From: Amphiscolops sp. MND2022
Lineage: Eukaryota
Direction of reading: 5' to 3'
DNA: 64,000 bases
NCBI GenBank assembly: GCA_964187785.1
Contig: OZ076415.1
Coordinates: forward strand, 48,794,001 to 48,858,000
A program made the translations under genes and the position numbers. The notes beneath the pieces are model-generated. The model saw only the letters and a list, made by a program, of their open reading frames with translations. It was not told where the DNA came from and searched no databases. This document shows, in pieces, positions 30,601 to 56,800 of the stretch (positions are counted from its first letter, which is position 1; every line of letters begins with the position of its first letter).

Positions 30601-33110
30601 TGGTTATAAAGCCTGATGATCCGTGAGTAATTTAATCGACCTACCATAGATATACAAACGGAAATGTTCTAATCGTTCTATGCGGCCAATATTCCGAGTT
30701 CATTTATCGCGTACTTCTTTTCGGCATCTGATAGAAATTGGCTCACGAAACCGATTGGTTTTAGTTTTCCGTCTAGCTGTTTTTGCCTGCCAAAGTGTTG
30801 CACCGAGGCCTTACTTACTGGTGTCGGTTGTTATCATGCTCGTATAGTTTGAATTGTAGTGAGCCAGACACGGTATCTCCGCGATCTTTTGTTTGAGATT
30901 TTCTAACACTTGTGTGTAATCTTTCGTCCATAGCCAATCATTGTCCTTCTTTAAGGGCTGTCTTATGCTTTCCGTTTGCACGGGTTGGCTGTCTATGTAT
31001 TTGGACAAGTATTGGCTGACCCCCGAAAATCATTTGAGTTCTTTTTCATTATAGGATCGTTTCAAATCTTTTTTTGCCATGAGTTCGTCCAGCAGTGGCC
31101 TGATTCCGTTTTGGTTTGACTCATGGCCAATCCATTCAAGGTCCATTTTAAAAAAAATCGGATTTATTTTCGCTGAGTCTGTATCCGGCATACTATAGCC
31201 AGGTTAAAACGTCTATTAGCTCCTTTGTGTGTTGTTCTTTTGAGCCTTTGGTTACGACAATAATATCATGTAACCATGCAGGGTGTTTGTTTTCCAATGT
31301 TTTGTCAATATTCTCCGGAAAATGGTCGGTATGTCCGCTAACCCGTAAAATCTCTTCAGGAAACGGTGGTAACCGGTGAAAGATCCTGAAGGGTTACGGC
31401 GAATATGCACAGGTTTCGGGCGTCTCTCGACAATAGTAGCTGGCCATATGCCTAATCCAGGTGGAACTTCGAAATCCAAATCTCGTCTGCCGGTCCATCT
31501 GCAATCTTTCTGGAAATCCTGGAAAGTAATTCCTCCATGTTAGTCATCTTTGCCTTTTTTATGGTGATTTCATTTAAGTTTCGTGAATGTAGGGCAATTT
31601 TTACTGACTTGTCCTTCTTTACCGTGTTTATAGCTGGACTGACGAAAGAGTTTTCCGAGATTTCCTTTTTGCTTTTTCAATATGGCCTTGTTTCATGAGT
31701 TTAACGACTTTTTTCCCGACCGAGTGTTATACGTGGATCGGTATTGGTCTTCTTTTTTGCTGTATCAATTTTGCGTCTTCCTTTAGCTGTATTTTCACTT
31801 CTAGTCCGTTCACGGTGTGACTTTCGTTGAAAAATTTTTTGAACTTCCTTGTTAGGATTGTTTTGTCCGGATCCTCAGTTATGTGATATATCTGTGGATC
31901 GGTCTTATCGATATCCAGCGTTATTCCCATTTTCTCCATCTAGTCCAAACCTAATAAAGGGATGGTTTTCTTTGTTGTTACCAGGACTTCGAGGTTGTTT
32001 CGCTTCCCGTTTATTTCTACTGTTGCGATTGTTTTCCTTGAGATCTAATCCGATTGTCATTTACATCTCTATATTCGGTTTCCATTGGCTTCAGTGGCAG
32101 AGTTCTGTTGAATTGTTATTTCGGTATTAAGGTTACCGGTGAGCCGTTATCCATTATAAATTTGATTGGCCGGATATTGACCAATGCGGTAAGAGTGAAG
32201 AATTCCGGAACATTCTTTTTCATTTGGCGTGTTGAATGGATCTCTTGATTTACTGATTGGATCGTTTTCGGTGATCAATCGTCCATTTCCGCATTGCTTG
32301 CTTCAATTTCTTGTATGTGGTTTACTCTTTTGTTTGTTCGACAGCATTTCGCGTAGTGGCCGATCTTTTCGCATTTCGCACATTTCTTTCCCTTAACCGG
32401 GTATTCGTGCTGTATAAGCCAATTAGGCGCTCTGCATTTATTGCAGTCTAGTTTCTTGAATTCAGCCGGTTTATCCAATGGTTCTTTGGTTCGTTTGGAC
32501 TTCTTGTCTTTCTTTTATTGAGAATCGATTTTTCTGCTCATCATCTGTTTCTGGTGAGTCGTTCAAATTCTCATACATGTACTCGTGTAGTGCTTCGGTA
32601 ATTGCCTCCACTGACATTAATCGCCTATCGATTTTCCGATTACGGATAAAAACGTTGATGCCAAAAGTTCCGCTGCGGTTAATGTTTCGCTTCTCTCTTT
32701 CTAACCGTTTTGGTAATTTCCGTGATAGCACTTTGTCTAATTGCCCACAAAAGACTGTTGTTTATCTCTGTTTCTAATTGATCACGCTATTTTGGCAGTA
32801 TTTCTTTGCTGTTTGTCATTGTCGATAAGTCTAGATCGTTTGTCATCTTTATGTTTTGTACAAACTTCCGCCACTACATGTTTGCGTTGGTTAGTCTTGC
32901 TTTTCCACTTTTGGAATGGGGAGTTTCTGGGTACATGTCCGTTCATTGGTTCGGTTAAGCGTATCGTTCGGTAGCGGTTGTTCACTTGAGGGTGTTCCCG
33001 CCGACGTCCTGTTGGTGGCTCCGTTCTTTGGAGTGGTGTTTGTGCTGTTATCCATTAGATATTTTTAGTAGTGGTCCTTTTTAATTCTGATGGTTACTCT
33101 GACTGCGCCA

Positions 33111-33328
33111 TATTGTATCTCGAATAGACGTATAAGAAAGAGAAAATCAATGATAAAATTCAACAGTTCTGTTTCTATCCTTTTTCTATCTGTTCGTACA
33201 AAGTTTCAGCTGCACTTATGTGGCAGGGCGGGTATTTAATCTATAAACAACAATATTATAAATGAACACAGACAAGAAAGCAGACTAATTAGTTTCTAGA
33301 GTCTAAATGAGTTCATCTGTCCTCTACA
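33111..33328 (-). repeat. 5' LTR (218 bp)
   Basis: Direct repeat of 27432-27648, followed on the minus strand by the PBS. Confidence 0.92.
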
Positions 33329-39600: not shown

Positions 39601-39781
39601 CAAATGACGGAACTGGCGCGACAGATGCCCGCTAGCGCGGGCCCCTGGCGCACTAAAAGGGGAATCCTTTCGGATTTTTAAACATCCATTGTTGCAAAAA
39701 AATAATCATTGAAGGGGGACCCTTTGGTGAAAAAAAAATTCAAAAAAAGTCTCACAATGCCAAAAAAACTGAAAGGGTGGA

Positions 39782-39969
39782 AGTAGTGAGTAAAGGGGGG
39801 GGGTTTAGGTAGATTTTGAATCCTTTGCAACTTTTGCTAACATGAAATTTTGGTAGCTAGAATTATCAGCTGAGAGTGACAGTCATATGGCAACTGAATA
39901 CACAATGGACTAAACAAGTTTAACATTGACAGTTGGTTGACATTTGGCACACACAAAGTATCGATATTA
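39782..39969 (+). repeat. Maverick left terminal inverted repeat
   Basis: Reverse complement of 53641-53828. The outer ~66 bp are identical except G-run length (9 vs 10); about 13 differences overall. Confidence 0.95.
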
Positions 39970-40457
39970 ATGAATTCTATCATGGTTCTGAAATTGAACC
40001 CAAACCTAACAAAAGTGACACCGGTTGTCTATTTCCATTGATAAGATGTATTTGAAACTCAAATGAAACCACGCTTTATTGAAACTGAATCTTCTGAACC
40101 GAACTTTATCAAAACTTTCGAATGGAAAATGCTTCAACCTAAAGCACCAGTTTTAAACGAACCATTTTTTATTCCGAACTTTTCTTCGAAATGAAAACAA
40201 ATTGACTGTTCACTGAAAACAAGGTTTTAAAATGATCGAATTTCCGAAGAGGAGGCTTTCCTGAATCGAATTACAATGACTCGTTTTCGATTGAAAAGTT
40301 TTGCAAAAATGCAACAAAAATTGAAATGATTACTTTTGATAGAAACATTTTCTAAAATTGAAGTAAACTAGATTGAATCAATGAAAGCACAAAAATGTCA
40401 ATGCAAAAACCAATGAAGAAAGCCTTCTCTTTCAGGTATTCTTTCGAATGAAAGATC

Positions 40458-43400
40458 ATGCATCTGTGTGATACATGCGGAAAAGTCTTCACTTCTCGAC
40501 GGTTTTTGAATAACCATCTCAAAACGAAACATAACCAAAACTTGGTGGAGAACTCTACCTCATTCGAATGCGGAGAATGTCGCAGTCAATTCAACCGAAG
40601 CCACAATTTATTGAAGCATCTTAGAAATCAACATCAGTCTCCATCGGCTCACAGGTGTTTCTTTTGTTCCACATATTTTGCGCATGAGAAATCTTTGCAC
40701 TTTCATGAGAGAAAAGATCACGGCCTGAATGAAATAAAACATCAAAAAAAGAGAATCTTTTCCTCAGCCCCTGTTGAATTCACGACTAAAGCCATTAATG
40801 ATAGATTCAAAGTTCATCGCTTGAAAATTATGCGAACAGACTTGTGTATCGATCCATTCAATTATTTGATATCGAATCAACAGAGTATATTGGATTTTGT
40901 GAATGAGAAACTCAGTCAATCGTCCAATTTAAAGGTGGGAGTTAGCATTGCTGTTAAACTTGTGAAACCACTGACCAACGATGACATGACTGCTTTCTTC
41001 AATTCTCATTTCATGCGTTTGGCTGATCATATCACAGATGAAGAATATCACGTTCACGTAGACCAATTAATGTCCAATTTGAGTGTTTACGCATCCTGTG
41101 GATCTGGTTGGGTGATAGATTCTCTACTTTCAGTTGAAGTCAAAACAGCTACGTGCCAAATGGCCTGTGGATCTTCATACATTGCAACGCCAATTATTCT
41201 TAAAGGTCTTTCCCGCAGCTTGCTGAATATCAAGAACAAAAAGGACAACTTTTGTTTTCTTTACTGCGTGGCAGCTGCAATATTCTCTTTCATTGGTCGA
41301 CCCAGCCATCCTAGTAATCACAAGGAAAATGTGAGGCGACTGAAATGTAATTCTGCGCGAATGCCAATGCCCTTATCCAGTATTCCTACTTTCGAGCGGT
41401 CAAATGATGTTTCAATCAATGTCTATCAACTGGAAGGAAGGAAGTTGGTTGCTGTGTATTATAGTAAGCGAAAATCTTCGAAGCGACGAATTAACCTTCT
41501 GCGTTTGGTAGGGGGCTCCAACTCTCACTACTGCCTAATCACTAATTTCTCCAATCTTCTTCAGCGACTAACACGATCGGAGAGCAAACGTAAAAAAGGT
41601 TCAAAGTCAAAATTCTGCTCCAACTGCTTTCAGCCTATCATCAAGAAAAATTTCAGAAAACATTTCAAATTTTGTGAATCAAATTCTCCACTCGAAATTC
41701 GTATGCCGACGTGTGCTCCTTTTGTCGAGTTTGTCAATTGGCAGAAAACACAGAGAGTTCCCTTTATTGTTTACGCAGATTTGGAAGCAATTGATGTCCC
41801 TTCGAATCCATCTACCACTGTGGGAAGCAACACTAAAGAAATTGAAAAGCAGTTTCTCTGTAGTTTTGGTGCTGTTCTCATCGACGATAGAAGTAAGTTT
41901 GTCAGTATTAGGTTTTTCGGCATCAAAAATTTTCGTTTCACAAAAACCGTTCTGACCCAAAATTTTTGGTTTAGGTAACAGTGTTGTGAAGAAAGAGTTC
42001 TACAAAGGAAAAGACTGCATTCAACAATTAATGAAGTTGCTTCGGTCGTGGTCAACATGGTGTTTCAAAAAGAAACAAAAATGTAAAATTCTACGAATAT
42101 CCAAAGATGATAGAATTTCTCTACTGAACCAAGATGACTTGAGATGCTGTTTATGTGGTGAGGAGATGGAAGAAAGTCAACGGGTAATTCACCACTGTCA
42201 CCTAACTGGTGAAATATTTGGAGTAGCTCATTCCAAGTGCAACCTGCGTGCGAGAACAACAAATTTCCTGCCGGTATTTTTTCACAACCTTTCGCGTTAT
42301 GACGCTCATCATATTATTAAATACTTGGTAATCGAGACTGGTGAAAAGTTGTCAGCTATTGCTAAAAACGATGAAACTTATATTTCGTTCTCTTTGGATA
42401 TGCCCATGGAAAAATTTAAAAGCAAGAAGGGTCACGATGTCATTCAATATCATTCTTTACGGTTTCTGGACAGCTTCCAGTTTATGTCTCAGAGCTTGGA
42501 TTCTTTAGCTAAAACCTTGGACAAGCAAGACTTCAAGTTGTTGAAAGCATGTTTCCCAAACATCACTGAAAGTATCTTTGAAAAATTAACAAGAAAAGGA
42601 TTCTTTCCGTACAATTTTCTCGACTCCCTCGAAAAATTTGCAATGCCACTTCCACCTTATGGCCCTGACTGGTTCAACACCTTGACTCAACGTATTGAAA
42701 TCACCGAGCAAGATTATGGTTGTGCTTTGGAGATGTACAATGCTTTTCATTGCCAAAATTTAGGCGACTATCACGATATCTATCTGAAAAGTGATGTGTT
42801 CATCCTGGCCGACATTTTTCAAAAGTTCAGGGAGGTATGCATGCAAGTCTACAGGCTGGACCCAGCTCACTTTTATTCGGCTCCGAACCTGAGTTGGGAT
42901 GCCATGCTAATCACAACTGGCGTTAAAATGGAACTAATGCAGGACATTGATCAGCTGTTGTTTTTTGAAAAGGCAATCCGAGGAGGAATCAATGGTCTTG
43001 GTGCACTGAGGCATTTTGAAGCTAACAACAAGTATCTGGATAATTTCAATCCTGAAAAAGACGTTACTTTTGGGGCGTTTTTTGATGTAACATCTCTGTA
43101 CGCAGGAACAATGCAAATGGAAATGCCGCTCGGAGGGTATCAATGGTGTCCTGAAATTACTCTGAATGAAATTCTGTCTACGCCCAATGACTCTCCCGTT
43201 GGTTACTTCGTCGAGGTTGACCTCGTGTACCCTCCTGGAATACACGACTCTCATAATGATCTTCCATTGGCTCCGGAAAAATTAAAAATACCTAAAGAAT
43301 GGAAATCGGATTATGCCAAGTCATTTGGTTTGAATATGAGCTCGGCGAATGAAAAGCTTGTAGAGACCCTGCTCGACAAAAAAAACTACATTTGCCATTA

Positions 43401-44906
43401 TGAAAACCTAAAATTCTATGTCAAACACGGTCTTAAAGTCACGACTCTACACCGGGCGGTAAAATTTCAACAGTCAAAATGGTTGGGAACGTACATTGCC
43501 AAAAACACTGTAATGCGTAAAAGTGCCGCAAATGACTTCGAGAAAAACTTTTACAAGCTAATGTCGAACGCTTGTTTGGGCAAAACAATGGAAAATCTCA
43601 GAAGACGTAGTACTCTAAAGTTCGTATCAACGGAGACTCAAGCTGAAGCATTCATTCAACGGGCAACCTTCAAGAGTTTCAAAATCATCAGCAAAAATCT
43701 TGTTACTGTTTCTTTGAAACCCTCTTCAGTGGTATGGAACAAACCGACACCCGTTGGCGCGAGTATTTTGGATTTGTCAAAACTTTCTTTGTACAAGTTT
43801 CACTATGAGGAGATGCTTCCACGGTATGGAGCAGACCGGTTGAAAGTAGTGTACAAAGACACAGACTCCCTGCTTTATCGAATCAAAACTGAAGACTTGT
43901 ATAAAGATATGGCCACATTCAAACATCTACTGGACCTCTCGGATTATCCTGCTGATCATTTTCTCCACGACAAAACCAACAAAAAAGTACCATTAACAAT
44001 GACGGATGAACTCAACGGAAAAGTTTTAAAAGAAGTTGTCTGTTTGAGATCTAAATTGTATAGCATCGATTACGTGGGAGGAACCAAGCAGAGTGCTAAA
44101 GGCGTTCAGAAATCTGTCAAAAAAACGCTACATCATAATTTATTCGAGGATTGTCTACTTTCTCAATCAACAGTACGTAGAAAGATGATTCAACTCAAAT
44201 CAGCCAGTCATCAAATAATTGTCAACTCTGTCAACAAGGTTGCTTTGAGCTGCTACGATGACAAGCGCTATATTTTAGATGACACGGTATCCTCCCTTGC
44301 ATATGGACATTATTCCTTGAAATCGTCTAGTCGACTAACGAGTGAGTAGACTTCTACATTGGGGAGATGTGAATGGTCTTTCGAGCAAAAAAAAATTTGT
44401 TTTTTTTGTAGGTCAAAGTGATTCGTCTGTTGATTCTGATGCATCCAATGATTCTTTCGACGGTGATGCTTCAGACATTGAATCTGAAACCGACGAGGAG
44501 GTTGGTAGTGGTGCTGATACTTGCTCTCTATCCAATACAATGAGCCCATCTGCTAGCAACAGCTCTCCTTGTGCCAATCATTGCAGTGTTCTAGCTCAGG
44601 CATGGAGCTCTGTGGAATATAGTTAGTTTTCATACAATACCTTGTACTAATCGATAAACTCGACGAGTGTGAAACGAAGATGTTTCAATTTCAGCTGCTC
44701 CAGATCCTGGATTCTTTCTCAACCAAACAAGCGGCGAGAATTCTGACCATGAAGCTCAGTGTATCAATTTTGAAACCCTTACCGATGATGAAGTTTCTGA
44801 TTCCGATGCTACACGTTTTGCCTGTCCCTTCATAGACTACGAGGCTACTGAAAGTGATGTAAGCCCTGATGATGAACCTTCCCGTAAAAAGGCTTGTCAA
44901 AAGTAA
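40458..44906 (+). CDS. Protein-primed family B DNA polymerase (pPolB) with N-terminal C2H2 fingers; predicted 4 exons, 1407 aa
   Basis: Exons 40458-41892, 41975-44341, 44412-44621, 44695-44906 (total 4224 nt, in frame). ExoI YADLE, ExoII FHNLSRYDAH, ExoIII YLKSDV, PolA FDVTSLY, PolB KLMSNACLGK, PolC YKDTDS. EndoVII-like insert CCLCG...IHHCHLTG...AHSKCNL. Intron 1 is required to join the domains; introns 2-3 are inferred (without them the protein ends at TAG 44349). Confidence 0.9.
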
Positions 44907-44976
44907 AATTCAACTGCCAATGTATATGCAAGGTTCTGTAAATCTTATATGCATTTACAGGTTTGATACCCATCAG

Positions 44977-45582
44977 TCATGTTACTTTATACATCAACAT
45001 CGTTTTACAGTGATCATTACAAAATAAAACCAAATCGATTTCTTGCATTTGTTTTAGCGGTTCCAACAAGGTTACAAATTGAGAGTGAAAAGTCTCCAGC
45101 TTGATAGAGTGTTGATCAGCTAGACGCATCAAGTAATGAGCCATGTGAAGACAATGCAGACCGCAAGTGTTTGAATGCGATGTTTGCAAAGGAAACTTGA
45201 TTTCAAAAATTTCTCCAGTGCCAATCTTTTTGAAAAGTGTCATCAAATGTTCAAAAAATGAAGTGTAATTCTGAATAGGTTTTCCCAATGGGTCCCATAC
45301 ACAAAAAAGTGTTCTCAATTGCCTCTTGAGGAACACTTGCGGTCTCAATATGAATAACAGCAACCAATGCTGTCCAACAGCTCCTACTGGAGATGTGTTA
45401 ATTATGAAATAAGAGTGCAAAAACAACGTCTGAAAATCTTTGCTACTTGTATTAACAGTCTCATTCTTCATCGCCAGTGACGGTAATGAGAAATTGTTTG
45501 CCGACCAAACACCAGCAAATTTAAATCGCGAAGATGCACAGCAGTTTTTAGCCAAGTCTGTAAGTGTAAAGTTATCCATCAT
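44977..45582 (-). CDS. Adenain-like (Ulp1/C5 family) cysteine maturation protease
   Basis: GQHW (His), WDPLG (Asp), PLQ...SNTCGLHC (Gln/Cys). ATG at 45582 overlaps the MCP stop (ATGA). Confidence 0.9.
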   Translation of the reverse strand: MMDNFTLTDLAKNCCASSRFKFAGVWSANNFSLPSLAMKNETVNTSSKDFQTLFLHSYFIINTSPVGAVGQHWLLLFILRPQVFLKRQLRTLFCVWDPLGKPIQNYTSFFEHLMTLFKKIGTGEIFEIKFPLQTSHSNTCGLHCLHMAHYLMRLADQHSIKLETFHSQFVTLLEPLKQMQEIDLVLFCNDHCKTMLMYKVT

Positions 45583-46949
45583 TTGCTCCGGCAATTTTTT
45601 CGTATATTACGCCCAGAGTCAATAAATACTTGACTGAATCGTTCACCAACAAGAAAAAGTTCCACAGGATCCGTTAAGGCTTCTGAAAAATCCAACTTTA
45701 GAGTGAGGCCACCTCCAGTGAGTTCCGGAAAAAGAGTGAGCGTCTTGCTCGCTTCTCTCGACGAGGTTAAATCGAAAACTAGGAAAAAGTGGTCATCTTC
45801 AAAGTCTGCCATTCCTATTCCATTCCCGCCAGTCTCAAAACCTAGAGCACAAATGGTGTTGTAAAAAAGACGGGTGCAATTTGTAGTCCTTATGGGTGTC
45901 CCAGCAATGGGAACTCCATTGCCGCGCTGAATTTCAACTTTACTCAGGTTGAATTTTTTGTACGGCGTGCATTCAATTGTCGATCCCCTGAAAAACTTGT
46001 TTCTCACCATGCACAACGTCAATCTGCGGATGGGTTCTGTTCCAAAAATGTTTTCCTTCACAAAACAATTTTGTCCAGCCTGGATTATAAAGCTCTTGTT
46101 CAGGCTCTCGATGTAAGGATAAACAGCGTCACTTTTCAACAGAGCTTTTTCTATGCTGACTCTAACTGAATCAGACAACACAATTTTGTTTACAAACAGG
46201 GATGCCTTTTCAATAACTACAGAGAAAGGCGCCTGATCGATTCGTTTGATGTCATCCGCAGTCCATGTTCCTACACTTTCGAGAGCGCAATTGCTCGGCG
46301 ATATGTAGAACCGCAAATGGAGTGAAACCCCAGGCAAAAGTAATCGCTCACAATCCAAAAAATCAATATGCGGCGCGCCATAGAGCTCAATTTTGAATTC
46401 TTCGCCTTTTCGAAAATTGTCCAGCTGCTTCATCTTTAGTTCTTCATTAGACTTTTCATTCGCTCTGTAGTGATAGCCTTGACATTGAGCCCAAGTCATT
46501 TTGCTGGCAATGTCCGTTGTAAGTTCAGTTTCGATGTAGGCCAAATGATGATAATTATTGTTGCTGCTGGAAACCAATTTTCCATCGAGAAAGAGCTCCA
46601 CATGTGAAAATAGAGAGTGTAAAATGTTATTTGCAAATGTGAGGTCCACGTCTGCAGGTTTAATTTTGTCTTTGCCATCTGGTCCGTAAATGCACACCTC
46701 CAAAGCCAGACAAAGCCTGTTCAAATCTATACAATTTTTGTTTTCAGCTGAAACGACAAAATCCAGTTGGGGCCCGCGACAGCCCACGTGGGGAAACACT
46801 TCCTGATCAAATGAACCTTCATAATTGATCAATACAGTCGGTTGCTCGAAAAAGTCCAAAGCACTGTGCGTTACTGGTCTGGCAATTTCCGACGCTTGAG
46901 TAAACAAAGTGCCCGTTGTGCCATTGCTGCTTCCACTATTCATTGGCAA
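45579..46949 (-). CDS. Major capsid protein (double jelly-roll, Maverick PY/hexon-like)
   Basis: 456 aa intact. LDFFEQPTV...LDFVV...IDL, FANNILHSLFS.VELFL, LYGAPHIDFLDCERLLLPGV, FLVFDLT motifs are typical of Maverick MCPs. Position between the core protein and protease also fits. Confidence 0.88.
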   Translation of the reverse strand: MPMNSGSSNGTTGTLFTQASEIARPVTHSALDFFEQPTVLINYEGSFDQEVFPHVGCRGPQLDFVVSAENKNCIDLNRLCLALEVCIYGPDGKDKIKPADVDLTFANNILHSLFSHVELFLDGKLVSSSNNNYHHLAYIETELTTDIASKMTWAQCQGYHYRANEKSNEELKMKQLDNFRKGEEFKIELYGAPHIDFLDCERLLLPGVSLHLRFYISPSNCALESVGTWTADDIKRIDQAPFSVVIEKASLFVNKIVLSDSVRVSIEKALLKSDAVYPYIESLNKSFIIQAGQNCFVKENIFGTEPIRRLTLCMVRNKFFRGSTIECTPYKKFNLSKVEIQRGNGVPIAGTPIRTTNCTRLFYNTICALGFETGGNGIGMADFEDDHFFLVFDLTSSREASKTLTLFPELTGGGLTLKLDFSEALTDPVELFLVGERFSQVFIDSGRNIRKNCRSK

Positions 46950-46959
46950 AATAGAAAAG

Positions 46960-47451
46960 TTAGGCGAAGTTGACGTTAGAAAGAATCTCGGACCGACTTC
47001 TTTTGGCTGACTTCTTTTTAGAAATGGTCGCCAATGGTCTGCTAGCAGTGCTTGTAATCTTATCTTTGCCTTTTTTAGTAGCCGGTGAGCCCGAATGACG
47101 CGAAGGCCCGTTCGGCGCCGCTTCCCGGAGCGTGACCTTGGTCGTCGCCGTGCCGCCGTCGGTCATCATTGTTTTCATTGCACTTTTTTTCAAAGTGTCT
47201 TTCAAAGCTTTGCGAGGTCTCTTTCTCCCGGAAACAACGTTTGACAGTTCAGGAACAAAAGCAGAAACTAAGTTTTTTCCAAACTCTTTTGCAACTGGCA
47301 ACACATATTTTTTCACAAGAGGTACCGCTACCCTTCCCATACGCATGGCAAAAGCGCCCATTCCACCGGATCCAAATTGCCTCGCCGGGCCGCCAAATGT
47401 TGTTTGATGATGACTTTGCAGTCGAATTTGAGAATCGTAATGAGCATCCAT
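46960..47451 (-). CDS. Basic core/membrane-lytic precursor protein (Maverick pX/pVI-like)
   Basis: FGGPARQFGSGGMGAF (QxGxG protease site), then an amphipathic helix and a Lys/Arg-rich C-terminus. Confidence 0.7.
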   Translation of the reverse strand: MDAHYDSQIRLQSHHQTTFGGPARQFGSGGMGAFAMRMGRVAVPLVKKYVLPVAKEFGKNLVSAFVPELSNVVSGRKRPRKALKDTLKKSAMKTMMTDGGTATTKVTLREAAPNGPSRHSGSPATKKGKDKITSTASRPLATISKKKSAKRSRSEILSNVNFA

Positions 47452-47494
47452 ATAGCGACCGCTTAGTGTGATGACTTTGACCAGAATGGAGCTC

Positions 47495-48396
47495 TCAGCG
47501 TTGGCGAAATTGAAGAGTGATGTTGGTGCGGCCGCGACTTAAAAAAGGTAACAATTGGCCAGACTCACTGCGTAAGGAAATTGTTATAGATTCGATGCTC
47601 GATTTGACTATTCGTCGCCATTGGAGATTGGTAAATGTTTGATAGTTTAGATATTGTTGCCCACGGTGTTCACTTAGGAAATTGCTTAGTGGAATTGCAC
47701 GTAGTAACGCAGTCTGTGAGTCTCCCAAAATTTCGTTTTGCACTAAATTGCAATAGAGAAAGATTGTGTTGCACCCACCGCTGATATCGATTGGAAACTT
47801 GCCGACAGTCTTTGATTTCATAGGGCTGGTTCTCGAAGTTGAACTGCTCTCCTTACAATCAATGACCGTTTTCAGTCCCAACACGTTTTGCAAATCGTTT
47901 GTTGTAGCTTCCAATAGGATGCAATCACGTTCGCTACCATCAAAACAAACCTTCAATGTTTGTGAAGATTTGTCAACCTTCCATGTAACTGGCAATTTTG
48001 CTGCAGCATTTGGAAAGACTTTTTTGAAAATGCTCTCCAAAATTTGGTCGACAGTCGAGTACAATCCTGGTTTAATGCTACAGGTCCTCTCTTCAATATG
48101 ATCTTCAATTTTAGGAGGGGTGTACATTGTCACTAGGCCATACGCCCTCTTGCGAGTTTTTTTACCTTGTTCCTCTTTATCATCTGGTTGAGCTGGCCTC
48201 AGCTGGTACTTGAATTCGCCGCAGGTAATGTTTTGAATTGCTGAAGGCCACGAAATTTCAGACACTGCTACTTCCCACGATCCTGATAAGGAGAGCTGGT
48301 GTGGTAGTAAAGTTGTGAATTGTGCCAGCGTATTGTTTGGAAACGTTGCCATTGAGGCATTGACACTAAATTTATTGTGAAGTCTTGGGATTGCAT
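47495..48396 (-). CDS. Minor capsid protein (penton, single jelly-roll) with a 1-nt frameshift near the N-terminus
   Basis: FPNNTLAQFTTLLP...WEVAVSEI, FLYCNLV..EILGDSQTALLRAIP, IESITISLRS...LLPF. Upstream ATG at 48396 reads MQSQDFTINLVS; adding one A at ~48360 restores LVSNASMATFP. Confidence 0.85.
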
Positions 48397-48426
48397 TTCC
48401 ACCAGTTTGTTCAAGGAGCTTCCGAG

Positions 48427-49641
48427 TTATAGAGGAGATTCTTCGAATGTTGTTAGTTCAGACTCATAAAATTTCCCAAGAATCAACTGATTGTTGGCGT
48501 CCCTAATCGTATAAGTGGGAGGGTTCAGTGTTTGTACTGTGGCTATCGTGAAAACCTCCTCAGTGAACTGAATGCGGTACCCTCTATGAAAAGTCTCAAT
48601 TTTTCGTTTTATTCTCACTTGCTGGCCAATGTGAAACTTTGGCCGAAGAGGGGTATTAGTGTTTTGCAACGAAATCAAATATGGAACATCGCATTTGCGT
48701 ACTTCCTTTGGAGCTAGCTTGGTGACACGATTAACTCGGCTGTTGATGACGTCCACGAATTGTTGCAGGTTTTCTACATAAGTATCGGTGTTGTTTTCGT
48801 GCAAATACTTGAATAAAATTGCCTTCAGTGATCGAATATTGCGCTCTGCAAACGCTGACTTTGTTTCGCTGTGCGTGGAATAAATTTGGATGTCATTATC
48901 AGTGCAGTATTCTGAAAATTGTCCTGCAAACTCTCGACCTTTATCTACCCAAATTTTTTCAGGCTTCAAGAAAATTGCGCAATTTGTTGAACAGAATTTA
49001 GGCTTCAAAGGGTTTGATTTATTCTTTCCTCTGGAGTTGAGATTGTTAATAATGGATTGGAGAGCATTTTTACATTCGATGGCCGTTTTTCGTTTCAATG
49101 GCATTGCCCAAACAAACCGACTCAGGGTGTCAACTGCTACCAGGATGAAGTTTACACCATGGTTGTGTCGTGCCAACTTTTGCATGTCTGCCAAGTCAAT
49201 GGACCAAATCTCATTCAACCGGTAGCTTTGAACTTTCAATCGGAGAAAACGATTGCGCGTTTGTTTAAACTTGGAATAAGTCTCGCTGCGGTTGAGATAG
49301 TTGTCAACTTGTTTGAATGTGCATTTGGAAGTCTGTTTGAGAGCAGTTCGACTGCCAAAAGCAGACGGATTGTTGCAGGATGTGTAAAGGTTATGCAATT
49401 TGCTATGTGCAATGATTTCTTCTGTTGGCTGGACCAATCGTCTTGTCGCTGAACATTTTGTGCATAGAAAGGTTTCGTTTTTCTTGTAATCCTTCAACTG
49501 TTTTAGGCCACTGCACGCAAAGTGGACCCATCCACATACGTTGCACCAGACTGAAGGATGTTGTCGAGAACCTCGACCCAATTCCTTGGCACAATTTCCA
49601 CAAAAATATTTTGTTTTAGGTTTTCTTCTAGTTTTATACAT
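48427..49641 (-). CDS. Retroviral-like DDE integrase with N-terminal PHD-like zinc finger
   Basis: WSIDLADM (D), WVDKGREF (D), AERNIRSLK (E), and Maverick C-terminal F..G..VRI/FTEEVF/GKFYESEL motifs. N-terminal CGNC...CNVC.WVH..C...CTKC. ATG at 49641. Confidence 0.92.
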   Translation of the reverse strand: MYKTRRKPKTKYFCGNCAKELGRGSRQHPSVWCNVCGWVHFACSGLKQLKDYKKNETFLCTKCSATRRLVQPTEEIIAHSKLHNLYTSCNNPSAFGSRTALKQTSKCTFKQVDNYLNRSETYSKFKQTRNRFLRLKVQSYRLNEIWSIDLADMQKLARHNHGVNFILVAVDTLSRFVWAMPLKRKTAIECKNALQSIINNLNSRGKNKSNPLKPKFCSTNCAIFLKPEKIWVDKGREFAGQFSEYCTDNDIQIYSTHSETKSAFAERNIRSLKAILFKYLHENNTDTYVENLQQFVDVINSRVNRVTKLAPKEVRKCDVPYLISLQNTNTPLRPKFHIGQQVRIKRKIETFHRGYRIQFTEEVFTIATVQTLNPPTYTIRDANNQLILGKFYESELTTFEESPL

Positions 49642-49696
49642 ATTCCGCGGTAAGATCAACTGTCGGGAACTGAGTTAGGCGTAAAAGTGATTCTTG

Positions 49697-50368
49697 CTAA
49701 TATAAACGCAACCATTTAGCAGTTGAGGAACTTCCAATCTTTTCATCCAAATCATTTTCTTCGTGATAGTGGGCGATTTCTGATGCAACACGTTTTGCAT
49801 TTGTATTAGCGATCAGAAATTCTGGTATCCGGATTCTCCTGATCAGTTCCAAAGCATTTTCACTCAATTTCTTCGTGGTCACCTGTAGGTCATTCAAAAA
49901 ATCGAAAATTGGTATGTTTACGTCTCGGTCGTGCATAAGTAATCGACCAGAGTTTGAATCAATCGACACATCCTTGGTCTGATCAATTTTTTGCAAGATT
50001 TGTCTCGATCGCTCAACTTTGCCGCCGGAAAGTCCCGAGGAAAGCAAATCGAGCACAATCCTGTCCGTTTTCGCAAGAGTCTTAGCCTTGTCGGATATGT
50101 CTTCATCAGCAGGAGCGCTCCTTTTGGGTGGAGCTTGCAATCTCGAGTTCAAATTGATTTGCGTGCAAGTTTTTTCCGCATTTGTTTCTTGCTGTTCGCA
50201 ACTGGTTCTTTTGTCAACGTTCGGCAGGATTGCTTGTGGGAAGGATTCGCTGAGATTCGCGATGTCGGATTTTGCGATTTCTGATTTGGTAGTTTTCAAA
50301 GACAACAAGGATATGTATTCGTCCAGTGTTATCAGAACGAATTCTTTGGTGCTACTGCCCGATATCAT
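49697..50368 (-). CDS. Conserved Maverick protein of unknown function (223 aa)
   Basis: N-terminal FVLITLDEY and C-terminal IFDFL.DL / IPEFLIAN resemble the conserved ORF upstream of Maverick integrases. Intact and overlapping its neighbour. Confidence 0.6.
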   Translation of the reverse strand: MISGSSTKEFVLITLDEYISLLSLKTTKSEIAKSDIANLSESFPQAILPNVDKRTSCEQQETNAEKTCTQINLNSRLQAPPKRSAPADEDISDKAKTLAKTDRIVLDLLSSGLSGGKVERSRQILQKIDQTKDVSIDSNSGRLLMHDRDVNIPIFDFLNDLQVTTKKLSENALELIRRIRIPEFLIANTNAKRVASEIAHYHEENDLDEKIGSSSTAKWLRLY

Positions 50369-50684
50369 GGCGTTTCATCAAATGATTAAGAATTGAACGT
50401 TCTATCAGATGCAAAAGTTTTAATCCATTTTTAGATGCCAACGACTGACGTTTCTTGACAATTTTGTTACTCTTTGCACAAAGAAAGTCTATCAGGCTTG
50501 TGAATTTCTCCAATTTCTTGCGGGAAACATTTGATGCCATTTTGATTTGGCCATGAACCACATTGAAAAGACAATTGCAGAAAAACTTTATTATTTCGTT
50601 CGAGCAATGAAGTAAAAACGTTTGTTTGACCACAGGTTTCATATCAATGAACAAATCAAGCATATAAAAGTTTCGTCGACTCAT
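50352..50684 (-). CDS. Conserved small basic Maverick protein (110 aa)
   Basis: IIKFFCNCLFNVVHGQI...KKL..F..LI..L pattern, typical of the small ORF downstream of Maverick ATPases. Confidence 0.65.
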   Translation of the reverse strand: MSRRNFYMLDLFIDMKPVVKQTFLLHCSNEIIKFFCNCLFNVVHGQIKMASNVSRKKLEKFTSLIDFLCAKSNKIVKKRQSLASKNGLKLLHLIERSILNHLMKRHDIGQ

Positions 50685-51357
50685 TTTCTACAGTTTCAGT
50701 TGTTTTAGTCGTAGAAATGTAAAACACAGAAGGTTTGTTGCCTGAGCAGTCTGTAGAATATTTGAGTTTGGGGTCCACCTGTGAATCCAAGTCAATCAAC
50801 AAATGACCGAAAGGCCTTAGTGTAGCTCTTTTATATGCCTCCAATAAAAGCTGTCGATCGCCCATTTGTCTTCCCAACACGCCAATTTGTTCAATATCGC
50901 GAGGGCTCTTGAAGAGTATCATTTGCGTAACGTTCAAGTCTATAGTTTTTGAATTTTTTGCTGGTTGATAGAGGTTGTGCTTTAGTATCATCAAGTGAAT
51001 ATTGCGATGGCGTCCTGCGACAACTAAGCTCAAAAATGCTTTGTCTTCACATGCATCTTGATACAAATCATCGATTACAACCAACGTTCTCATCTTTTGC
51101 GCCTCACACTTGTCGACGGCAGACCATTGGAGACCTTGATGGAATTCAATTGATGTTCTGTCATCGGATGCCCCAAGCAATAAAGATTGATAATGATCTT
51201 GGAAGTGGTTGTAAAAATATAGGATTTTATCGAAGGATGGCTTGAAAATTTTCCGCTGATTCTGCAACATTTGCGACACGAGTTGAGTTTTCCCGCAACC
51301 TCCAGGGCCAACAATTGAAATGAAACAGTGAGGACTTGTATTAATTCTCTTATTCAT
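50656..51357 (-). CDS. A32/FtsK-HerA family genome packaging ATPase (233 aa)
   Basis: Walker A GPGGCGKT, Walker B LVVIDD, GRHRNI arginine finger and ILKHN motif. ATG at 51357 overlaps the upstream stop (ATGA). Confidence 0.93.
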   Translation of the reverse strand: MNKRINTSPHCFISIVGPGGCGKTQLVSQMLQNQRKIFKPSFDKILYFYNHFQDHYQSLLLGASDDRTSIEFHQGLQWSAVDKCEAQKMRTLVVIDDLYQDACEDKAFLSLVVAGRHRNIHLMILKHNLYQPAKNSKTIDLNVTQMILFKSPRDIEQIGVLGRQMGDRQLLLEAYKRATLRPFGHLLIDLDSQVDPKLKYSTDCSGNKPSVFYISTTKTTETVENESTKLLYA

Positions 51358-51647
51358 GCTCTTGGACTCGGAATGATGTATCCAATACAAGCTGACAGTA
51401 ATGCTAAAACGCCGGAATGATAATGAGTTTGAGAGCTGAGCGCTAAGTACCCAATACTGAATAGAACAACTGCAAAAATTATTGAGTAGTGAAAAAGAAG
51501 AATGAAAAGTGTTCTGTTGCAAGTACTTTTTCTGAAACAGCAACAATTCAATTCGAATGGCGATCTTTCCCGGTTTTGGTCGTCAAAAATAACGGCTCCA
51601 ACATCCAGTGCATCAGCAAAATCCCCTTCGCTGGTTGCTTTTGTCAT
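51354..51647 (-). CDS. Small two-helix membrane protein (97 aa)
   Basis: CCC cluster, hydrophobic segments TLFILLFHYSIIFAVVLFSIGYL and GVLALLSACIGYII, C-terminal PSP. ATGA overlaps at both ends. Confidence 0.7.
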   Translation of the reverse strand: MTKATSEGDFADALDVGAVIFDDQNRERSPFELNCCCFRKSTCNRTLFILLFHYSIIFAVVLFSIGYLALSSQTHYHSGVLALLSACIGYIIPSPRA

Positions 51648-51895
51648 TGTTCTTGGAAAAAGTTTATATGATAGGGATTAATGTTTAAAACAAAGTTGAT
51701 AACTTGGTACAGCCTTTGCAAGTCGGTCAAATTTAAATGAATCCGATTCAAAGTCTGTCGACTTTTTGTACTCGGAATGTTCGACTGCTCTATGCAAACA
51801 AGAAGCGTTTTTGGAGTCAAGCGAGCTGAAAAATTGGTAGTGGGAGAGATGGGAAGTGAAATTGAAGTTTCAACGTAAGAGCGCACGACTGACAT
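51644..51895 (-). CDS. Small 83-aa protein, possibly PC4-like ssDNA-binding fold
   Basis: ATG-started and coupled by an ATGA overlap. Beta-rich N-terminus then RIHLNLTDLQRL helix. The fold is a guess. Confidence 0.45.
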   Translation of the reverse strand: MSVVRSYVETSISLPISPTTNFSARLTPKTLLVCIEQSNIPSTKSRQTLNRIHLNLTDLQRLYQVINFVLNINPYHINFFQEQ

Positions 51896-51922
51896 CTGAG
51901 CAAGCTGGATCGGTAATGAACG

Positions 51923-52339
51923 TCAAAGCAAAAACTTCTCGTATTCCGTAGTCCTGTATATCTTCATATGCAGCCAATAAGCTAATCCTGTAAAGTGTCC
52001 GAGTAACATATTGTTCGTGAAAATTGGTTTATGAGATAATGCATATACATAACCCGGACCCAGATCGAAATTGCTTTTCATGAAACCGAACGCATCGTGA
52101 AATATTGCATGAAGTCGGAAGATTTTGAAATGTTTGAAATATTTGTCCAATATACTATTTCCGGGACCTATTAGACCGCCAAATTCTGCCATGTCATTAA
52201 TGTCCCACAAATTGACATCTTTATCAATACAGTAGCAAACTGCCAGGAATGCGTTTTTTCTCAGTGTATTTCTTGGAAAAAGGTAACTAACTTCGCCCAA
52301 AGCAGTTTGCAAATCACTAGCGGAAAAAATAATTTGCAT
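51923..52339 (-). CDS. Phospholipase A2-like protein (parvoviral VP1u/adintovirus PLA2-type)
   Basis: LIGPGNS Ca-binding loop followed by LHAIFHDAFG with the His-Asp dyad. Confidence 0.65.
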   Translation of the reverse strand: MQIIFSASDLQTALGEVSYLFPRNTLRKNAFLAVCYCIDKDVNLWDINDMAEFGGLIGPGNSILDKYFKHFKIFRLHAIFHDAFGFMKSNFDLGPGYVYALSHKPIFTNNMLLGHFTGLAYWLHMKIYRTTEYEKFLL

Positions 52340-52404
52340 TTTGAAAGATTTATTTCATCCAAATTAAAGCAACTGTTTCTCAACAGAAATTTTTGATAAA
52401 TGGT

Positions 52405-53280
52405 TTAGGGAAATTGTGAATTCTCATCAATGAATGTGAACAAATCAGTGGTGTAGTTTATGTTCACTTTTTCCTCGACATTATCAGTTTCCGAGTTTTG
52501 ACCTTCAACACATTCAATGCATTGGCATTGAGCATCTGAAAATCCCAAATCCACTGACAGAACATTGTTGTGATGCGAAGCGTGGATTGTCCCAAAGCCT
52601 CGCTCAAGCAGCTCTATAAAGTCCAGCACACTGTCTTTGAATACCGTTTGGGACCTCTGCAGCTCAACTAATCTTTGGCTTAGAAAAAAAAGTTTTTCAG
52701 AGTCTTCTCTATCATTGAATGGAGTGTAGCAGCTCCGTTGCAGCTCCCAAATCAAGTTGAAATTGCATCCCAAATCAGGGGTTGGTTTCGAATTCAAAAT
52801 TTTTTCCAGTTTCTTCCCGTGAATGAATAAATTGTTTCCGCTAAGACGGGCCTCAGTTAGGAGACAATTCTCTGGGTAGGAAATTTTGAATAACTTTACT
52901 TGACTATTCGTCACTTTCAATGTCTTCTGGTTGCCCAGATATTGGGCACCCAATGTTTCTTTAATGAACTTCTCTGCGCCCACGAATGACTTGATGTATA
53001 GGAGAATATGGAAATGCTCTCCCTGGATAGTTGAACAAAGATCTGCTTCCGTTTGCTCAGCTACTCCATGGCGTCTGATGCTGTACTCGCAGTGAGTGTT
53101 TTTCAGGAGTTTCTTAATAAATCGGCAAAGATTTTCTGGAAATCTGTTTTGAAGCTCATCTGCAGGTTTGCATTTTTTATAGGGTGGCGATTCCTGATGA
53201 TTACTAGCCAACCTTTCTTCTTCAGTGAAGAAAACCAAGTAATAGAAATGAGGAGGAATTTCGCGTAAGACACTTGACAT
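52405..53280 (-). CDS. 291-aa protein with HUH-like motif, function unknown
   Basis: Intact ORF from ATG 53280. FYYLVFF strand and QGEHFHILLY motif. Confidence 0.6.
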   Translation of the reverse strand: MSSVLREIPPHFYYLVFFTEEERLASNHQESPPYKKCKPADELQNRFPENLCRFIKKLLKNTHCEYSIRRHGVAEQTEADLCSTIQGEHFHILLYIKSFVGAEKFIKETLGAQYLGNQKTLKVTNSQVKLFKISYPENCLLTEARLSGNNLFIHGKKLEKILNSKPTPDLGCNFNLIWELQRSCYTPFNDREDSEKLFFLSQRLVELQRSQTVFKDSVLDFIELLERGFGTIHASHHNNVLSVDLGFSDAQCQCIECVEGQNSETDNVEEKVNINYTTDLFTFIDENSQFP

Positions 53281-53640
53281 GATGGAGCTGAGGAACCAAA
53301 TGGCGTTCAATTTGGAAGGAAAATGGTTCGGATATCTTATCTCGGTTATGTAACTTTTCCTTTAAAATGGAGTTTTCCGTCCAAAACCGAAGCTGTTCCT
53401 AGCACAGTGTAACAGCGTGTTTTGGTTGTCGCTAACCGGTATTTTTCTGAGGTAATCCAAATTCTGTGCTAGGAACTTTCAGCAACAGTCAATTTGGCAA
53501 AATGGTCAAATTTCGGCAAATTGGTTAAATTTACAGCTCCCTTTATATTACTGGGTATCGCTTCTGACACCTTATATGGTAAGTTTCACATTCACCTTCG
53601 TTTTGATTTCAGTTCAAGGTTATAATAATAATAAAAGATC

Positions 53641-53828
53641 TAATATAGATACTTTCTGTGTGCCAAATGTCAACCACTGTCAACGTTAAACTTGGTTAGT
53701 CCATTGTGTACTCGGTTGTCATATAGCTGTCACTCTCAGCTGATAATTCTAGCTACCAACTTTTCATGTTAGCAAAAGTTGCAAAGGATTCAAAATCTAC
53801 CTAAACCCCCCCCCCTTTACTCACTACT
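53641..53828 (-). repeat. Maverick right terminal inverted repeat
   Basis: Ends ...ctttactcactact followed by TSD ggtgga. Confidence 0.95.
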
Positions 53829-56800
53829 GGTGGACCCTTTGGGGTTTTTTTCAACATCCTTTCTGTCGCAAAACATCAAAAAAGTGAAGGGGGGCCCTTT
53901 GGGGATTTTTTGCGAAAAAAAAATCTCAGTGCCGAAAAAAACTGAAAGGGGGCCCTTTAGTTTCTCCCGGTATTGTGTGTTATACGGAAAAAGAGGAAAA
54001 ACCTTTTTGGTTCAGTTCGCTAGGCAAATGATACAGTTAGGGACCATAAAATTTGGTAGAACTTTTAAGAACTATTTTGGTCAGATTGTGTGGACTGAAA
54101 AAAAAGAGTCACTATAATAGTCGCGTTTCACTTCATGAAGCGCCGACTAAAAACTCAAACAATTAGTGAAAACTTATTCATGTAAACTGAACAGTATTTA
54201 GATTACATAATTGTTTCTTCCCTGGCAAAGATGGTACATAATTGTGTTTCTTCCCTGGCAAAGGTGGTCAATTAGCCTTCTTTCCTTTGCTATGTACTTT
54301 CAAAAATGAACGAAAAGTTGTTGATTCAGCCAAAAGTTGCACAATTAAAAGTAGCAACATTTTTGTATTCCAGCCACAAGTGTCTTGCTGAAGATGTCTT
54401 CTTGTTTTCATCGGAATCCAACTATTTTCAGATGAAAAGGGAGTGCTTATTTGGAAAAAACTTGTATGTTGAAATGAGGAATCTTGAGGCAAGAGAAAGG
54501 TCGAATATCCAATAAGGTGACAATTGTCTGAAGTTTTTCGACAAATTATCCATACTCAGGAAGGATTTCACGTCAGCACAAACTCAGAAAAAGCAGACAG
54601 AGAAAATTAGTTCAATTTTCAGTAGCTTTTTACTAAGGTCTCAGATGAAAGGCCACACCGGACGGCCTAGTGGTTAGGCCTGATTGGTCCAGTTGTGGTC
54701 AGAGGAAAGATATGAGTCATGGTGCAGTCTCCAGATACATATTGACCGAGTTTGACAGATTTTCATTATCAATGATTACATTAGGCAAGATGAAAAAATC
54801 AATGCCTTTTTGTTGTAGGCGTCTTCAGATTTTTTTCAACTTTCTTACCGAAATCTTTTTTGAAGCGTGATGTTCTCATACCTCTCCACATGTTTTGCAT
54901 CAAACAAATCATTGTAACCCCTAAGATTCCAGAAAACGAAATCAGCTACACATTTTTTGTCACCAGTAAGGAAAATTTTGTTTTAAAACCATATAACAAC
55001 TATTTTCAAAACCGATCATTTGGCAACATTTCTGATTTCAACCAAATATACAAAATCAGCTATTCAAATACGGTTCGAAAAAACGATTTTCAATCGCAAA
55101 TCGTACAATATTCAACGATTCAGCCAGACTTTAAAGAACGGTAATTGGTCCCATTTTTATCAGCAAACATGCGCAGAAGCCCACTTCACTGTTTTTAGTT
55201 CAAAGTAGAAAAAGCTTTGAAAAACATGTTTCCCTAACCACCGTGTACATACAGAATAACAAAAGTAAACTCGAACGCAAAAAACTTGAATACAATCGGT
55301 TCCACCGAAAAAAACATAAGCGAAGTAGAAAGGTGATGTGGCATATAAACTCTATGAGAAATAACTGGAGTCATTCGTTGTAGCAGATGAGCTGAATTTG
55401 AGACGGCAATTACTTGAAAAATCGAAATACAGAAAAAAATGAAAATTCATCACTGAACTACGTGGTATCGATAAATCAACAACACTCTCGAGTCTCAAAA
55501 ACTCATTTGGAGAAGTCTTAAATTCTCTCCCGAGCCTTTTATATTTCCTAAACTATCGTTTCTCTAACCTCGGCATGTTTTGAGAATGAGGACGCTCAAA
55601 TGCTAATAACATAGAAACCTAAAGTGTTAGAAAAGTCTTCTCTTTCGGGTACAACACTAATAAGGACAGTTCTGAGGCCTTGAGGAACCTAAACGGAAAC
55701 AAACTTCCGATTCGATCCAATTTACCCGCGCGGCATTGAAAGACGAAGCGCCGGTTCTAGCTAAACAATTTGTTGTTCATTTTTCGTTTTTCTCAGAAGC
55801 AAAAATCTTAGTTTTTCTTCATTACTGTCGCCAATAGATACTAGATGCTGGAAAAAACTTTTTAAAAATTTTCGTTTGGGGCTTAGGGTAAACGGGAGTT
55901 TCTTTGTCTGGTGATGGGGCCTAAGAAGTAAGAGTTAGAGGGTTCAATTGCCTTGCTAGACCAAAACCTTTCAATCCTTAAAAAAGTACCGGAAAGTCCA
56001 AAGAGTCTCCCTATTCCCTATGGGGTTGTCAAGCGATGTGCATTTTTCGAAAGGAAAATTTTTTGATTTCCAGGGAGGGGAACGCGGAAGCAGTTCAGGA
56101 GAAAAGTCGAGTGTTTTGGCGCTGCGACTCGATTGCGGAAAGTTTTATGAATCGTTTTCAGTTAGAAACACGTTTTCGAGCCAGGAAGGTCACTTCTTTC
56201 GTTCATGTCGGCAGTTTGTGAGTTATGTTTCGAATCAACATTTTCGAAGCAAAATCACAAATTTGGGTTTTTAATGTTTTGAGTAAATAAACTCACTCCC
56301 GAAAAAGTCACTTTTGTTTCAAATTTTATCGAAATTGCTGAACCCAAAGTTTGAAATGAACCATAATGCTCGGAGATTTTAATTTCAGTCAAACATGTTG
56401 TGGTTAAGCCCTTGTGCCTTGCATTGTGTCGAATTGAATTTAACTTCTCTAACTCACCATTTTCGGGCCTTGAGCAAATCCTTATTTCCATGCTTGGGGG
56501 TATGCTCAAGACAAAACACAGTTCTTGAAAGCAACAGAAATGAAAAGAGCAACAGCGTTGAGACCTTTGTGAACTTGAACCACGCATCTCGTTGAAAACA
56601 CAGCTTCAAGCTGACCCACTACTACTAAACTACAAAGCTGCAAATATGGTACCAAACGTTGCAATCAGAAGTGATGATCCCAAAAAGGTATCGACTTAGC
56701 AAAGCGTAAATGCTTGTTCGGCGTCAACGCAGCAAAACTAACAAAGATCTTTTTCTTTGCAAGTTTTGACTGTTTTCTGCTATTGGATTGCAGTCTTTGA

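Follow-up and report, generated by a model that had tools for sequence, protein, structure and literature searches.

The analysed window, a 64,000-nucleotide stretch of the genome of the animal Amphiscolops sp. MND2022 (contig OZ076415.1, positions 48,794,001 to 48,858,000; the assembly comprises 1.07 Gb), contains a Maverick/Polinton element whose DNA polymerase gene, pPolB, is with high confidence interrupted by three introns. As an overall explanation, we consider it probable that this gene is expressed by splicing of the three introns, that it encodes an older acidic C-terminal tail likely docking on host nuclear proteins, and that the introns were gained stepwise.

Exon-intron structure of pPolB

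The predicted spliced gene lies on the forward strand and is composed of four exon pieces of 1435, 2367, 210, and 212 nt, giving 4224 nt or 1407 codons and a stop. Exon 1 (40458-41892, 478 codons) encodes C2H2 zinc fingers, the N-terminal domains, and the ExoI motif YADLEA at 41772, and is followed by intron 1 (41893-41974, 82 nt, GTAAGT..TTTAG). Exon 2 (41975-44341) encodes an EndoVII/HNH-like insert (PF02945, E-value 7e-5, slightly below the cut-off) and the exonuclease and polymerase motifs, including FDVTSLY and YKDTDS. Intron 2 (44342-44411, 70 nt, GTGAGT..TTTTTTTGTAG) precedes exon 3 (44412-44621, 210 nt), a linker rich in Asp, Glu, and Ser. Intron 3 (44622-44694, 73 nt, GTTAGT..TTTCAG) has a CTAAT branch-like site and leads to exon 4 (44695-44906), where an alignment, together with 67 hidden Markov model (HMM) matches, delineates the motifs PDPGF, INFETL, and CPFIDYEATES, a basic patch, and the stop. 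The identity of the polymerase, a protein-primed enzyme of family B, is clear from its PF03175 match (79 bits against a cut-off of 25.8, E-value 4e-22) and from the presence of the catalytic motifs.

All junctions are in phase 1, and every exon piece is stop-free in the running frame up to the TAA at 44904-44906; the stop of the raw second open reading frame (ORF), at 44347-44349, falls within intron 2. A preliminary description of this region had given the same intron coordinates, lengths, and GT-AG ends, the same phase, and a total divisible by three, and recomputation reproduced all of them; a common phase together with divisibility by three is by itself weak evidence. The three introns show the traits of the U2 type, namely GT...AG ends, the donor consensus, and a pyrimidine-rich acceptor. 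Their precise removal restores homology, leaving the one-codon gap seen in intronless sisters at the first site and the tail junction found in RefSeq models at the third. Among family representatives the introns have a GC content of 0.19-0.40, compared with 0.44-0.48 for exon 3.

A candidate poly(A) signal AATAAA is located at 45023-45028 (forward strand), and such a downstream signal within 250 nt was found in just three of ten families. The stops of pPolB and of the convergent protease gene are merely 70 nt apart (44907-45028 region). Because of this spacing, and because the poly(A) signal lies inside the protease ORF, the 3' ends of the two genes likely overlap.

Conservation of the splice sites

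Introns 2 and 3 are tied to fixed positions in the protein. In particular, a phase-1 GT occurs 28-40 nt after YGH, the last conserved polymerase motif, in all 11 family representatives, and an AG is found exactly 8 nt upstream of the DPG codons, again in 11 of 11, with none of them carrying an AG at any other offset between 5 and 21 nt. Owing to their common ancestry, the families do not represent independent trials. The same AG is present in 47 of the 48 loci with both anchors (53 loci were examined, five of them lacking an anchor). Intron sequence around these sites has diverged between families, to an identity of about 0.5. Exon 3, which lies between the two introns, is 174-210 nt long; in all ten families its length is a multiple of three, its predicted frame contains no stop, and Asp, Glu, and Ser make up 41-67% of its residues. 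Its third frame contains 4-25 stops. In loci L088 and L089, intron 2 (72 nt) is itself stop-free, and the raw polymerase ORF continues into exon 3 in the predicted frame (97 open codons). A stop-free splice path was found in 44 of 48 loci, a permissive count without a null, the controlled test being the fixed-offset AG profile. Conservation of the intron positions in sibling copies, proposed earlier as a check, was confirmed in 22 close copies, the four splice dinucleotides being intact in 22, 21, 21, and 21 of them. Intron-2 indels, present in 19 of 21 close copies, were discounted, as they sit in A/T homopolymers.

Intron 1 was surveyed in 52 loci of more distant families, 50 of which had both flanks. 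At its site, 29 of these 50 loci have approximately 59-88 extra bases, 19 have none, and two have small private indels. By family, the intron is absent at the same codon in four sister families and present, with unrelated sequence, in six others and in the window family. The intronless families have exactly one codon between the exon 1 and exon 2 homologies, which matches the removal of a phase-1 intron. Where the insert is present, it opens with GT after the same base and closes with YAG. An insert of 111 nt with GT-AG ends also occupies this site in a contig from a metagenome (L150), and 23 of the 32 relatives from metagenomes run through the site without interruption or stop codon. Among close copies, the GT of intron 1 is intact in 28 of 28 and the AG in 25 of 28. 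In one locus (L080, G000:C3:45713326-45723226), intron 1 is 63 nt long instead of the 62 nt of its family, and the raw frame reads through it, remaining open for 1288 aa.

The nearest named relatives of the polymerase are from the acoel Convolutriloba macropyga. Three of its RefSeq models (XP_075250921.1, XP_075241726.1, and XP_075245649.1, the P0012 cluster) join exon 3 to the PDPG exon in the same phase and at the same position, and the raw ORFs of this cluster stop where the models splice, marking a homologous intron-3 site. The intronless sisters, the fixed AG, and these junctions bear out the earlier proposal of host-type spliceosomal introns at the level of sequence comparison. Thus, the host spliceosome likely removes all three introns, yielding a single polymerase of 1407 aa.

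The acidic C-terminal tail

The tail exons encode 138 whole codons, of which 57 are for Asp, Glu, or Ser, and contain FIDYEATESD and the basic end PSRKKACQK, in agreement with the preliminary description of about 140 added residues rich in these amino acids. The conserved core of the tail consists of PDPGF, an acidic VD[FW], [CN]PFIxxEAxE, and a basic patch, often followed by a final run of serine and acidic residues. Searches found no meaningful match of the tail in Pfam or PDB and no usable one in the protein atlas; it is a conserved module of one pPolB clade and has no Pfam family of its own.

In L139-L142, which represent three distant families of this genome, polymerase and tail share a single genomic frame (1257-1328 aa); they likewise form one open frame in five of the 120 best database homologs and in 18 of the 67 matches of the exon-4 profile HMM. 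In P0010 and P0012, the frame passes from the polymerase into exon 3 without intron 2 and stops at the apparent intron 3. The contiguous frame of the intronless relatives confirms that the tail belongs to the polymerase, as had been suggested, and by the same comparison the tail is older than the introns.

The three distant families are an observation in their own right. They are multi-copy and have an intact intronless frame for pPolB and the tail (L139-L142 at G000:C1:76727000, C2:3980000, C9:52639000, and C10:5051200). Neither a terminal inverted repeat nor, over about 10 kb of upstream and 15 kb of downstream sequence, a gene for capsid, protease, or integrase was found. The sequence common to L141 and L142 covers at least 9.8 kb and extends into tandem repeats. 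These families are possibly solo-polymerase mobile elements.

The tail is predicted to be disordered: the AlphaFold2 model of a relative, P0190, has a confident core, with pLDDT below 50 over nearly all of residues 861-994. We regard a disordered partner-binding module as a reasonably likely description of it. The basic end may be a nuclear localization signal, judging by the motif type. The F-x3-E spacing of the tail motif, observed in 61 of 67 HMM matches, fits F146 and E150 of the Spt5N motif, so histone binding is plausible by motif spacing; histone H3-H4 as the actual partner is a tentative suggestion, less likely than not. The tail motif may also resemble papillomavirus E1, Spt6, and Claspin; the motif was not found in the available portion of PMC11380579.

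Proposed stepwise gain of introns

The intron states were compared on a quick tree of 28 rows, from which L031, L032, and L101 (short open frames), P0006 (of the window family), and most homologs were left out. One branch of this tree (SH-aLRT 98) separates the seven rows that have intron 1 from all the others. The tail-bearing outgroups have no introns, and P0009, P0010, and P0012 apparently have intron 3 only. Introns 2 and 3 occur together in the L096, L034, L090, and L092 families, and all three introns in the window clade. This distribution suggests a stepwise gain of introns in the order 3, 2, 1.

The history of intron 1 may be more complex. The P0003 and P0004 proteins, on whose ends the assignment of their intron-1 state rests, start at the junction of intron 1, where P0003 reads through an acceptor-like sequence, and are sisters of the L034/L090/L092 clade, which is intronless at this site. 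Hence, intron 1 was likely either gained once and precisely lost once, or gained twice. The P0003/P0004 lineage is absent from this genome (best match 75-76%) and from the metagenome scan.

Selection on the tail and evidence to the contrary

Variants occurring in at least two of 22 close copies gave a ratio of nonsynonymous to synonymous polymorphism (pN/pS) of 0.05 for exon 2, 0.29 for exon 3, 0.39 for exon 4, and 0.29 for the protease, the number of sites being small. Over all variants, the respective values are 0.49, 0.76, 0.63, and 0.91; higher values are expected here because of decay after insertion. The preliminary description had named frame-breaking indels in exons 3 and 4 beside a conserved exon 2 as a pattern that would refute its proposal. 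This pattern is seen in part for exon 3, which is broken in two of 21 close copies, and not for exon 4, which is broken in none of the 21; nor is exon 2 free of damage, the stretch of it that was examined having indels in six.

Several observations weigh against the interpretation preferred here. With respect to coding, the all-variant pN/pS of the tail exons is as high as 0.63-0.76, the two exon 3 indels are private frame-breaking events (-8 in L014 and +5 in L021), L014 also lacks the intron-3 donor, and no stop-free path exists in four of 48 loci (L031, L032, L087, and L090). Between families, exon 3 is conserved at 0.49, not above the introns (0.51-0.53), and the RefSeq intron-3 junctions come from predicted models. 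With respect to the tail, 115 of the 120 top homologs lack the tail motif in the ORF and none of 24 metagenome C-termini contains it, so that the tail is dispensable for pPolBs generally; scans of IMG/VR gave nine loci with query A2, none of them with the tail, and no match with P0011. The tails also depart from the complete Spt5N/Mcm2-type motif (F, E at +4, and V at +7 in an acidic tail), since the third key residue of Spt5, V at +7, is E in 48 of 67 tails and V in two. Finally, P0011 lacks intron 3 and is placed among rows apparently having it, and the order of gain rests on a quick tree with one open fork and on protein ends without DNA.

Proposed mechanism and alternative explanations

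No RNA polymerase gene was found in the element, and its transcription is therefore likely performed by host RNA polymerase II, in which case short host-like introns would be tolerated. The major spliceosome would remove the three introns to allow synthesis of one 1407-aa protein, and in-frame stops of unspliced introns would merely remove mis-spliced RNA. The tail may form a flexible arm of short motifs, with the basic patch serving nuclear import and the acidic F-x3-E-A motif binding a chromatin or histone-chaperone partner. Such an arm would let the polymerase replicate a chromatinised template in the nucleus.

Among the alternatives, the least improbable, which we nevertheless consider unlikely, accepts the three introns and has the tail act in cis or on proteins of the element, either as a DNA-mimicking acidic arm that damps the polymerase or as a handle for the core protein, integrase, or packaging ATPase. 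The strong acidity of the tail, the basic core-like ORF encoded by the element, and the deviation of the tail motif from Spt5 at +7 would fit this explanation; AlphaFold2, however, does not dock the tail onto the polymerase core, and retention of the tail in solo pPolB repeats without nearby capsid, protease, and integrase genes favours a host or cis partner over a virion partner. Less probable still is regulated intron-2 retention, by which a functional short polymerase ending in LTSE would be made beside the long form and would allow the element to alternate between two modes of replication; the earlier suggestion was that retention gives the short form and splicing the long one. The catalytic core in the AlphaFold2 model of the relative ends right before intron 2, most pPolB homologs (the 115 of 120 without the tail motif) end near this site, and a stop follows the intron-2 donor in nine of ten families. 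But this stop wanders between families, lying 10-31 codons after YGH behind residues that are not conserved, and is missing in L088 and L089, which read into exon 3. No A[A/T]TAAA hexamer occurs between intron 2 and exon 4 in any of the ten families, and relatives without intron 2 are unable to make the short form. The early stop is better seen as a by-product of the phase-1 donor, since GTTAGT reads xGT TAG in five of ten families. Moreover, transcripts with a stop ahead of the spliced intron 3 would be predicted targets of nonsense-mediated decay, which counts against a functional short form.

Two further alternatives were considered. Exons 3 and 4 could represent a separate small gene, or exon 3 could usually be skipped by joining the donor at 44342 to the acceptor at 44694, which keeps the frame. 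Exon 3 is indeed symmetrical (phase 1-1) and poorly conserved in sequence, and many pieces of the tail appear in gene-caller output as small ORFs of their own. Nevertheless, exon 3 showed no conserved ATG, intronless relatives encode polymerase and tail without a break, the RefSeq models contain exon 3, and the intron-2 acceptor, the intron-3 donor, and the open frame of exon 3 are kept in 10 of 10 families, which makes this reading very improbable. Hardly credible is the last alternative, a broken gene whose presumed introns are insertions in dead copies in the genome or introners carried as passengers. There are precedents for both in the available text of the respective papers: introners populate dinoflagellate eupolintoviruses (PMC12166617), and the Genewise introns of vertebrate Mavericks mark decayed copies (PMC8097293). 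Here, however, over 20 copies at dispersed sites have the interruptions in common, and roughly a dozen of these copies are 99% identical, which means that the element carried its introns along as it spread; the introns are conserved in position and diverged in sequence across families with protein identity of about 60-75%; and the terminal inverted repeats, target-site duplication, and other ORFs are intact. With regard to introners, which form recently mobile families of near-identical introns at many unrelated sites, a comparison confined to the introns of this gene and its relatives showed that the three introns differ from each other in sequence, show no clear end repeats, and diverge across families. 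The spliced three-intron polymerase with a partner-binding tail thus remains the preferred explanation.

The Maverick/Polinton element and its surroundings

The element is 14,047 bp long (39782-53828). The left terminal inverted repeat (39782-39969, forward strand) begins with AGTAGT and is 93-94% complementary to the right one (53641-53828, reverse strand), which has the same AGTAGT end; the repeats are about 188 bp long. As a rule, the terminal inverted repeats of Mavericks/Polintons start with short AG or AGT repeats. The 6-bp target-site duplication GGTGGA is found at 39776-39781 (forward strand) and at 53829-53834, directly after the right repeat. Together with pPolB, an rve integrase, a cysteine protease, and a packaging ATPase, these ends identify the element as a Maverick/Polinton.

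The other genes are located on the reverse strand. Downstream of pPolB lies a single ORF for an adenain/Ulp1-like cysteine protease (44977-45579; PF02902, E-value 1.8e-4, above the cut-off), which is followed by the single ORF of a likely major capsid protein of 453 aa (45579-46940), proposed from its size, position, and 59-70% conservation; it has no match in Pfam, PHROG, or PDB sequences. A basic, conserved ORF of about 163 aa (46960-47451), without family match, is presumably the core protein, a type known from such elements. The next ORF (47495-48352, 285 aa) is by position likely the minor capsid protein (penton) and has no match in Pfam, PHROG, or PDB sequences. Mavericks/Polintons have a double jelly-roll major and a single jelly-roll minor capsid protein, and the conserved 453-aa and 285-aa ORFs are situated in the block where these would be expected. 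The retroviral-like integrase (48427-49641), a single ORF with an N-terminal PHD-like finger, gives an rve E-value of 1.5e-6 (28.8 bits, below the cut-off of 32.6) and matches integrases adjoining pPolB in eight of nine IMG/VR loci. An A32-like packaging ATPase is encoded at 50656-51358 (PF04665, E-value 2e-6, above the cut-off). In intact family representatives, the protease, likely major capsid protein, core protein, likely penton, and integrase align without intron-sized frame breaks. Thus, pPolB departs from the intronless core ORFs by which Mavericks are described, and the other core genes examined are single ORFs. The genome contains at least 24 nearly complete matches to the tail region, around a dozen at 99%; since many dispersed near-identical copies share the interruptions, the split gene is the form that spread, in a family that was recently active.

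Three more ORFs lie on the reverse strand of the element. An ORF of about 290 aa (52405-53361) contains GEHFHILL, which we take to resemble an HUH endonuclease motif, and has no Pfam, PHROG, or protein-atlas match. The 138-aa ORF at 51923-52354, without family match, contains GPGN...HD...Y, with a spacing presumably like that of parvoviral phospholipase A2. The ORF of about 97 aa at 51354-51677 has two hydrophobic stretches and likely encodes a membrane protein.

Elsewhere in the window, two related broken copies of the long interspersed nuclear element type (endonuclease and reverse transcriptase), about 71% alike, occupy 6548-10236 and 19351-23182 on the forward strand. Direct repeats of approximately 215 nt (91-94% identity), 5.68 kb apart in the region 27434-33328, enclose a weak rve match (28661-29266, reverse strand) and likely represent a decayed long terminal repeat element. 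An open frame at 687-1385 (reverse strand) with weak WD40 matches is probably a host exon. At locus L123 of the genome (G000:C4:21122000-21130000), histone genes in the order H3-H2A-H4-H2B form a tandem cluster whose unit is about 3.63 kb long, and there are many such arrays.

Comparison with known systems

The split gene has practical consequences. ORF-based surveys would call such elements dead and truncate their polymerase, as in database entry P0006, a protein of 787 aa ending in LTSE. Element expression would be tied to the host spliceosome, and a conserved C-terminal module of pPolB without a Pfam family may connect host chromatin with protein-primed replication. With alignable copies of the same gene that have or lack introns, this genome also offers a rare direct test bed for intron gain and loss. 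A bolder view, which we put forward as speculative and rather doubtful, is that in one clade of animal Mavericks the polymerase evolved a histone-chaperone-like arm of its own, an acidic F-x3-E motif in the manner of Spt5 or Mcm2 with which it replicates through nucleosomes or recycles them, and that in this lineage the gene is a time series of intron gain and precise loss, with 0-, 2-, and 3-intron versions in one genome, in a still-mobile DNA virus.

The literature search, which did not extend to Repbase and supplements, found no account of spliceosomal introns conserved in the pPolB of animal Mavericks, nor of this acidic tail; in particular, the accessible parts of the papers on adintoviruses (PMC8502044), pPolB domains, nematode pPolB, and the animal-virus survey contain nothing on either. 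The window element resembles animal Mavericks/Polintons (adintoviruses, Eupolintoviridae) in its size of about 14 kb, terminal inverted repeats, 6-bp target-site duplication, pPolB, rve integrase, protease, A32-like ATPase, and likely capsid genes, and differs from them in that its core pPolB is split by three introns. As far as the available texts go, intact vertebrate Mavericks are described with intronless ORFs (PMC8097293), and nematode core genes are intronless, introns being found in cargo genes only (10.1101/2022.07.12.499685). The earlier remark that introns are unusual for a Maverick core gene thus agrees with these sources. Broken ORFs were scored as decay in vertebrate Mavericks, according to the same part of PMC8097293, whereas here the split gene is the form that spread.

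Other introns have been described in related viruses. Introners, young copies of a mobile intron family, are reported in the portion of PMC12166617 available to us for dinoflagellate eupolintoviruses, and are likewise spliceosomal-type introns in integrated polinton-like viruses; in contrast, the introns described here appear to be old, conserved in position, diverged, mutually unrelated, and located in an animal. Group I introns were described in cryptophyte polinton-like viruses (PMC12220804, available text). The multidomain architecture with an EndoVII/HNH-like insert has counterparts in the TP-vOTU-EXO-PALM pPolB (10.1101/2024.03.18.585575) and in the HNH-bearing pPolB2 (10.1101/2023.08.22.554363); no description of an acidic C-terminal tail was found for either in the parts of these sources at hand, and the window pPolB has one.

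According to the available text of PMC8886531, the acidic motif of Spt5N binds H3-H4 via F146, E150, and a Val. The tail of pPolB shares with it an aromatic-x3-Glu pattern within the acidic disordered tail of a processive nucleic-acid machine; at +7, the tail mostly has Glu and Spt5N has Val, and there is no sequence-profile match between them. Close parallels are three Convolutriloba macropyga proteins annotated as uncharacterized (LOC142343118, LOC142336698, and LOC142339456), which are related pPolBs with the same tail and the same intron-3 junction, and differ from the window gene in having no intron 2.

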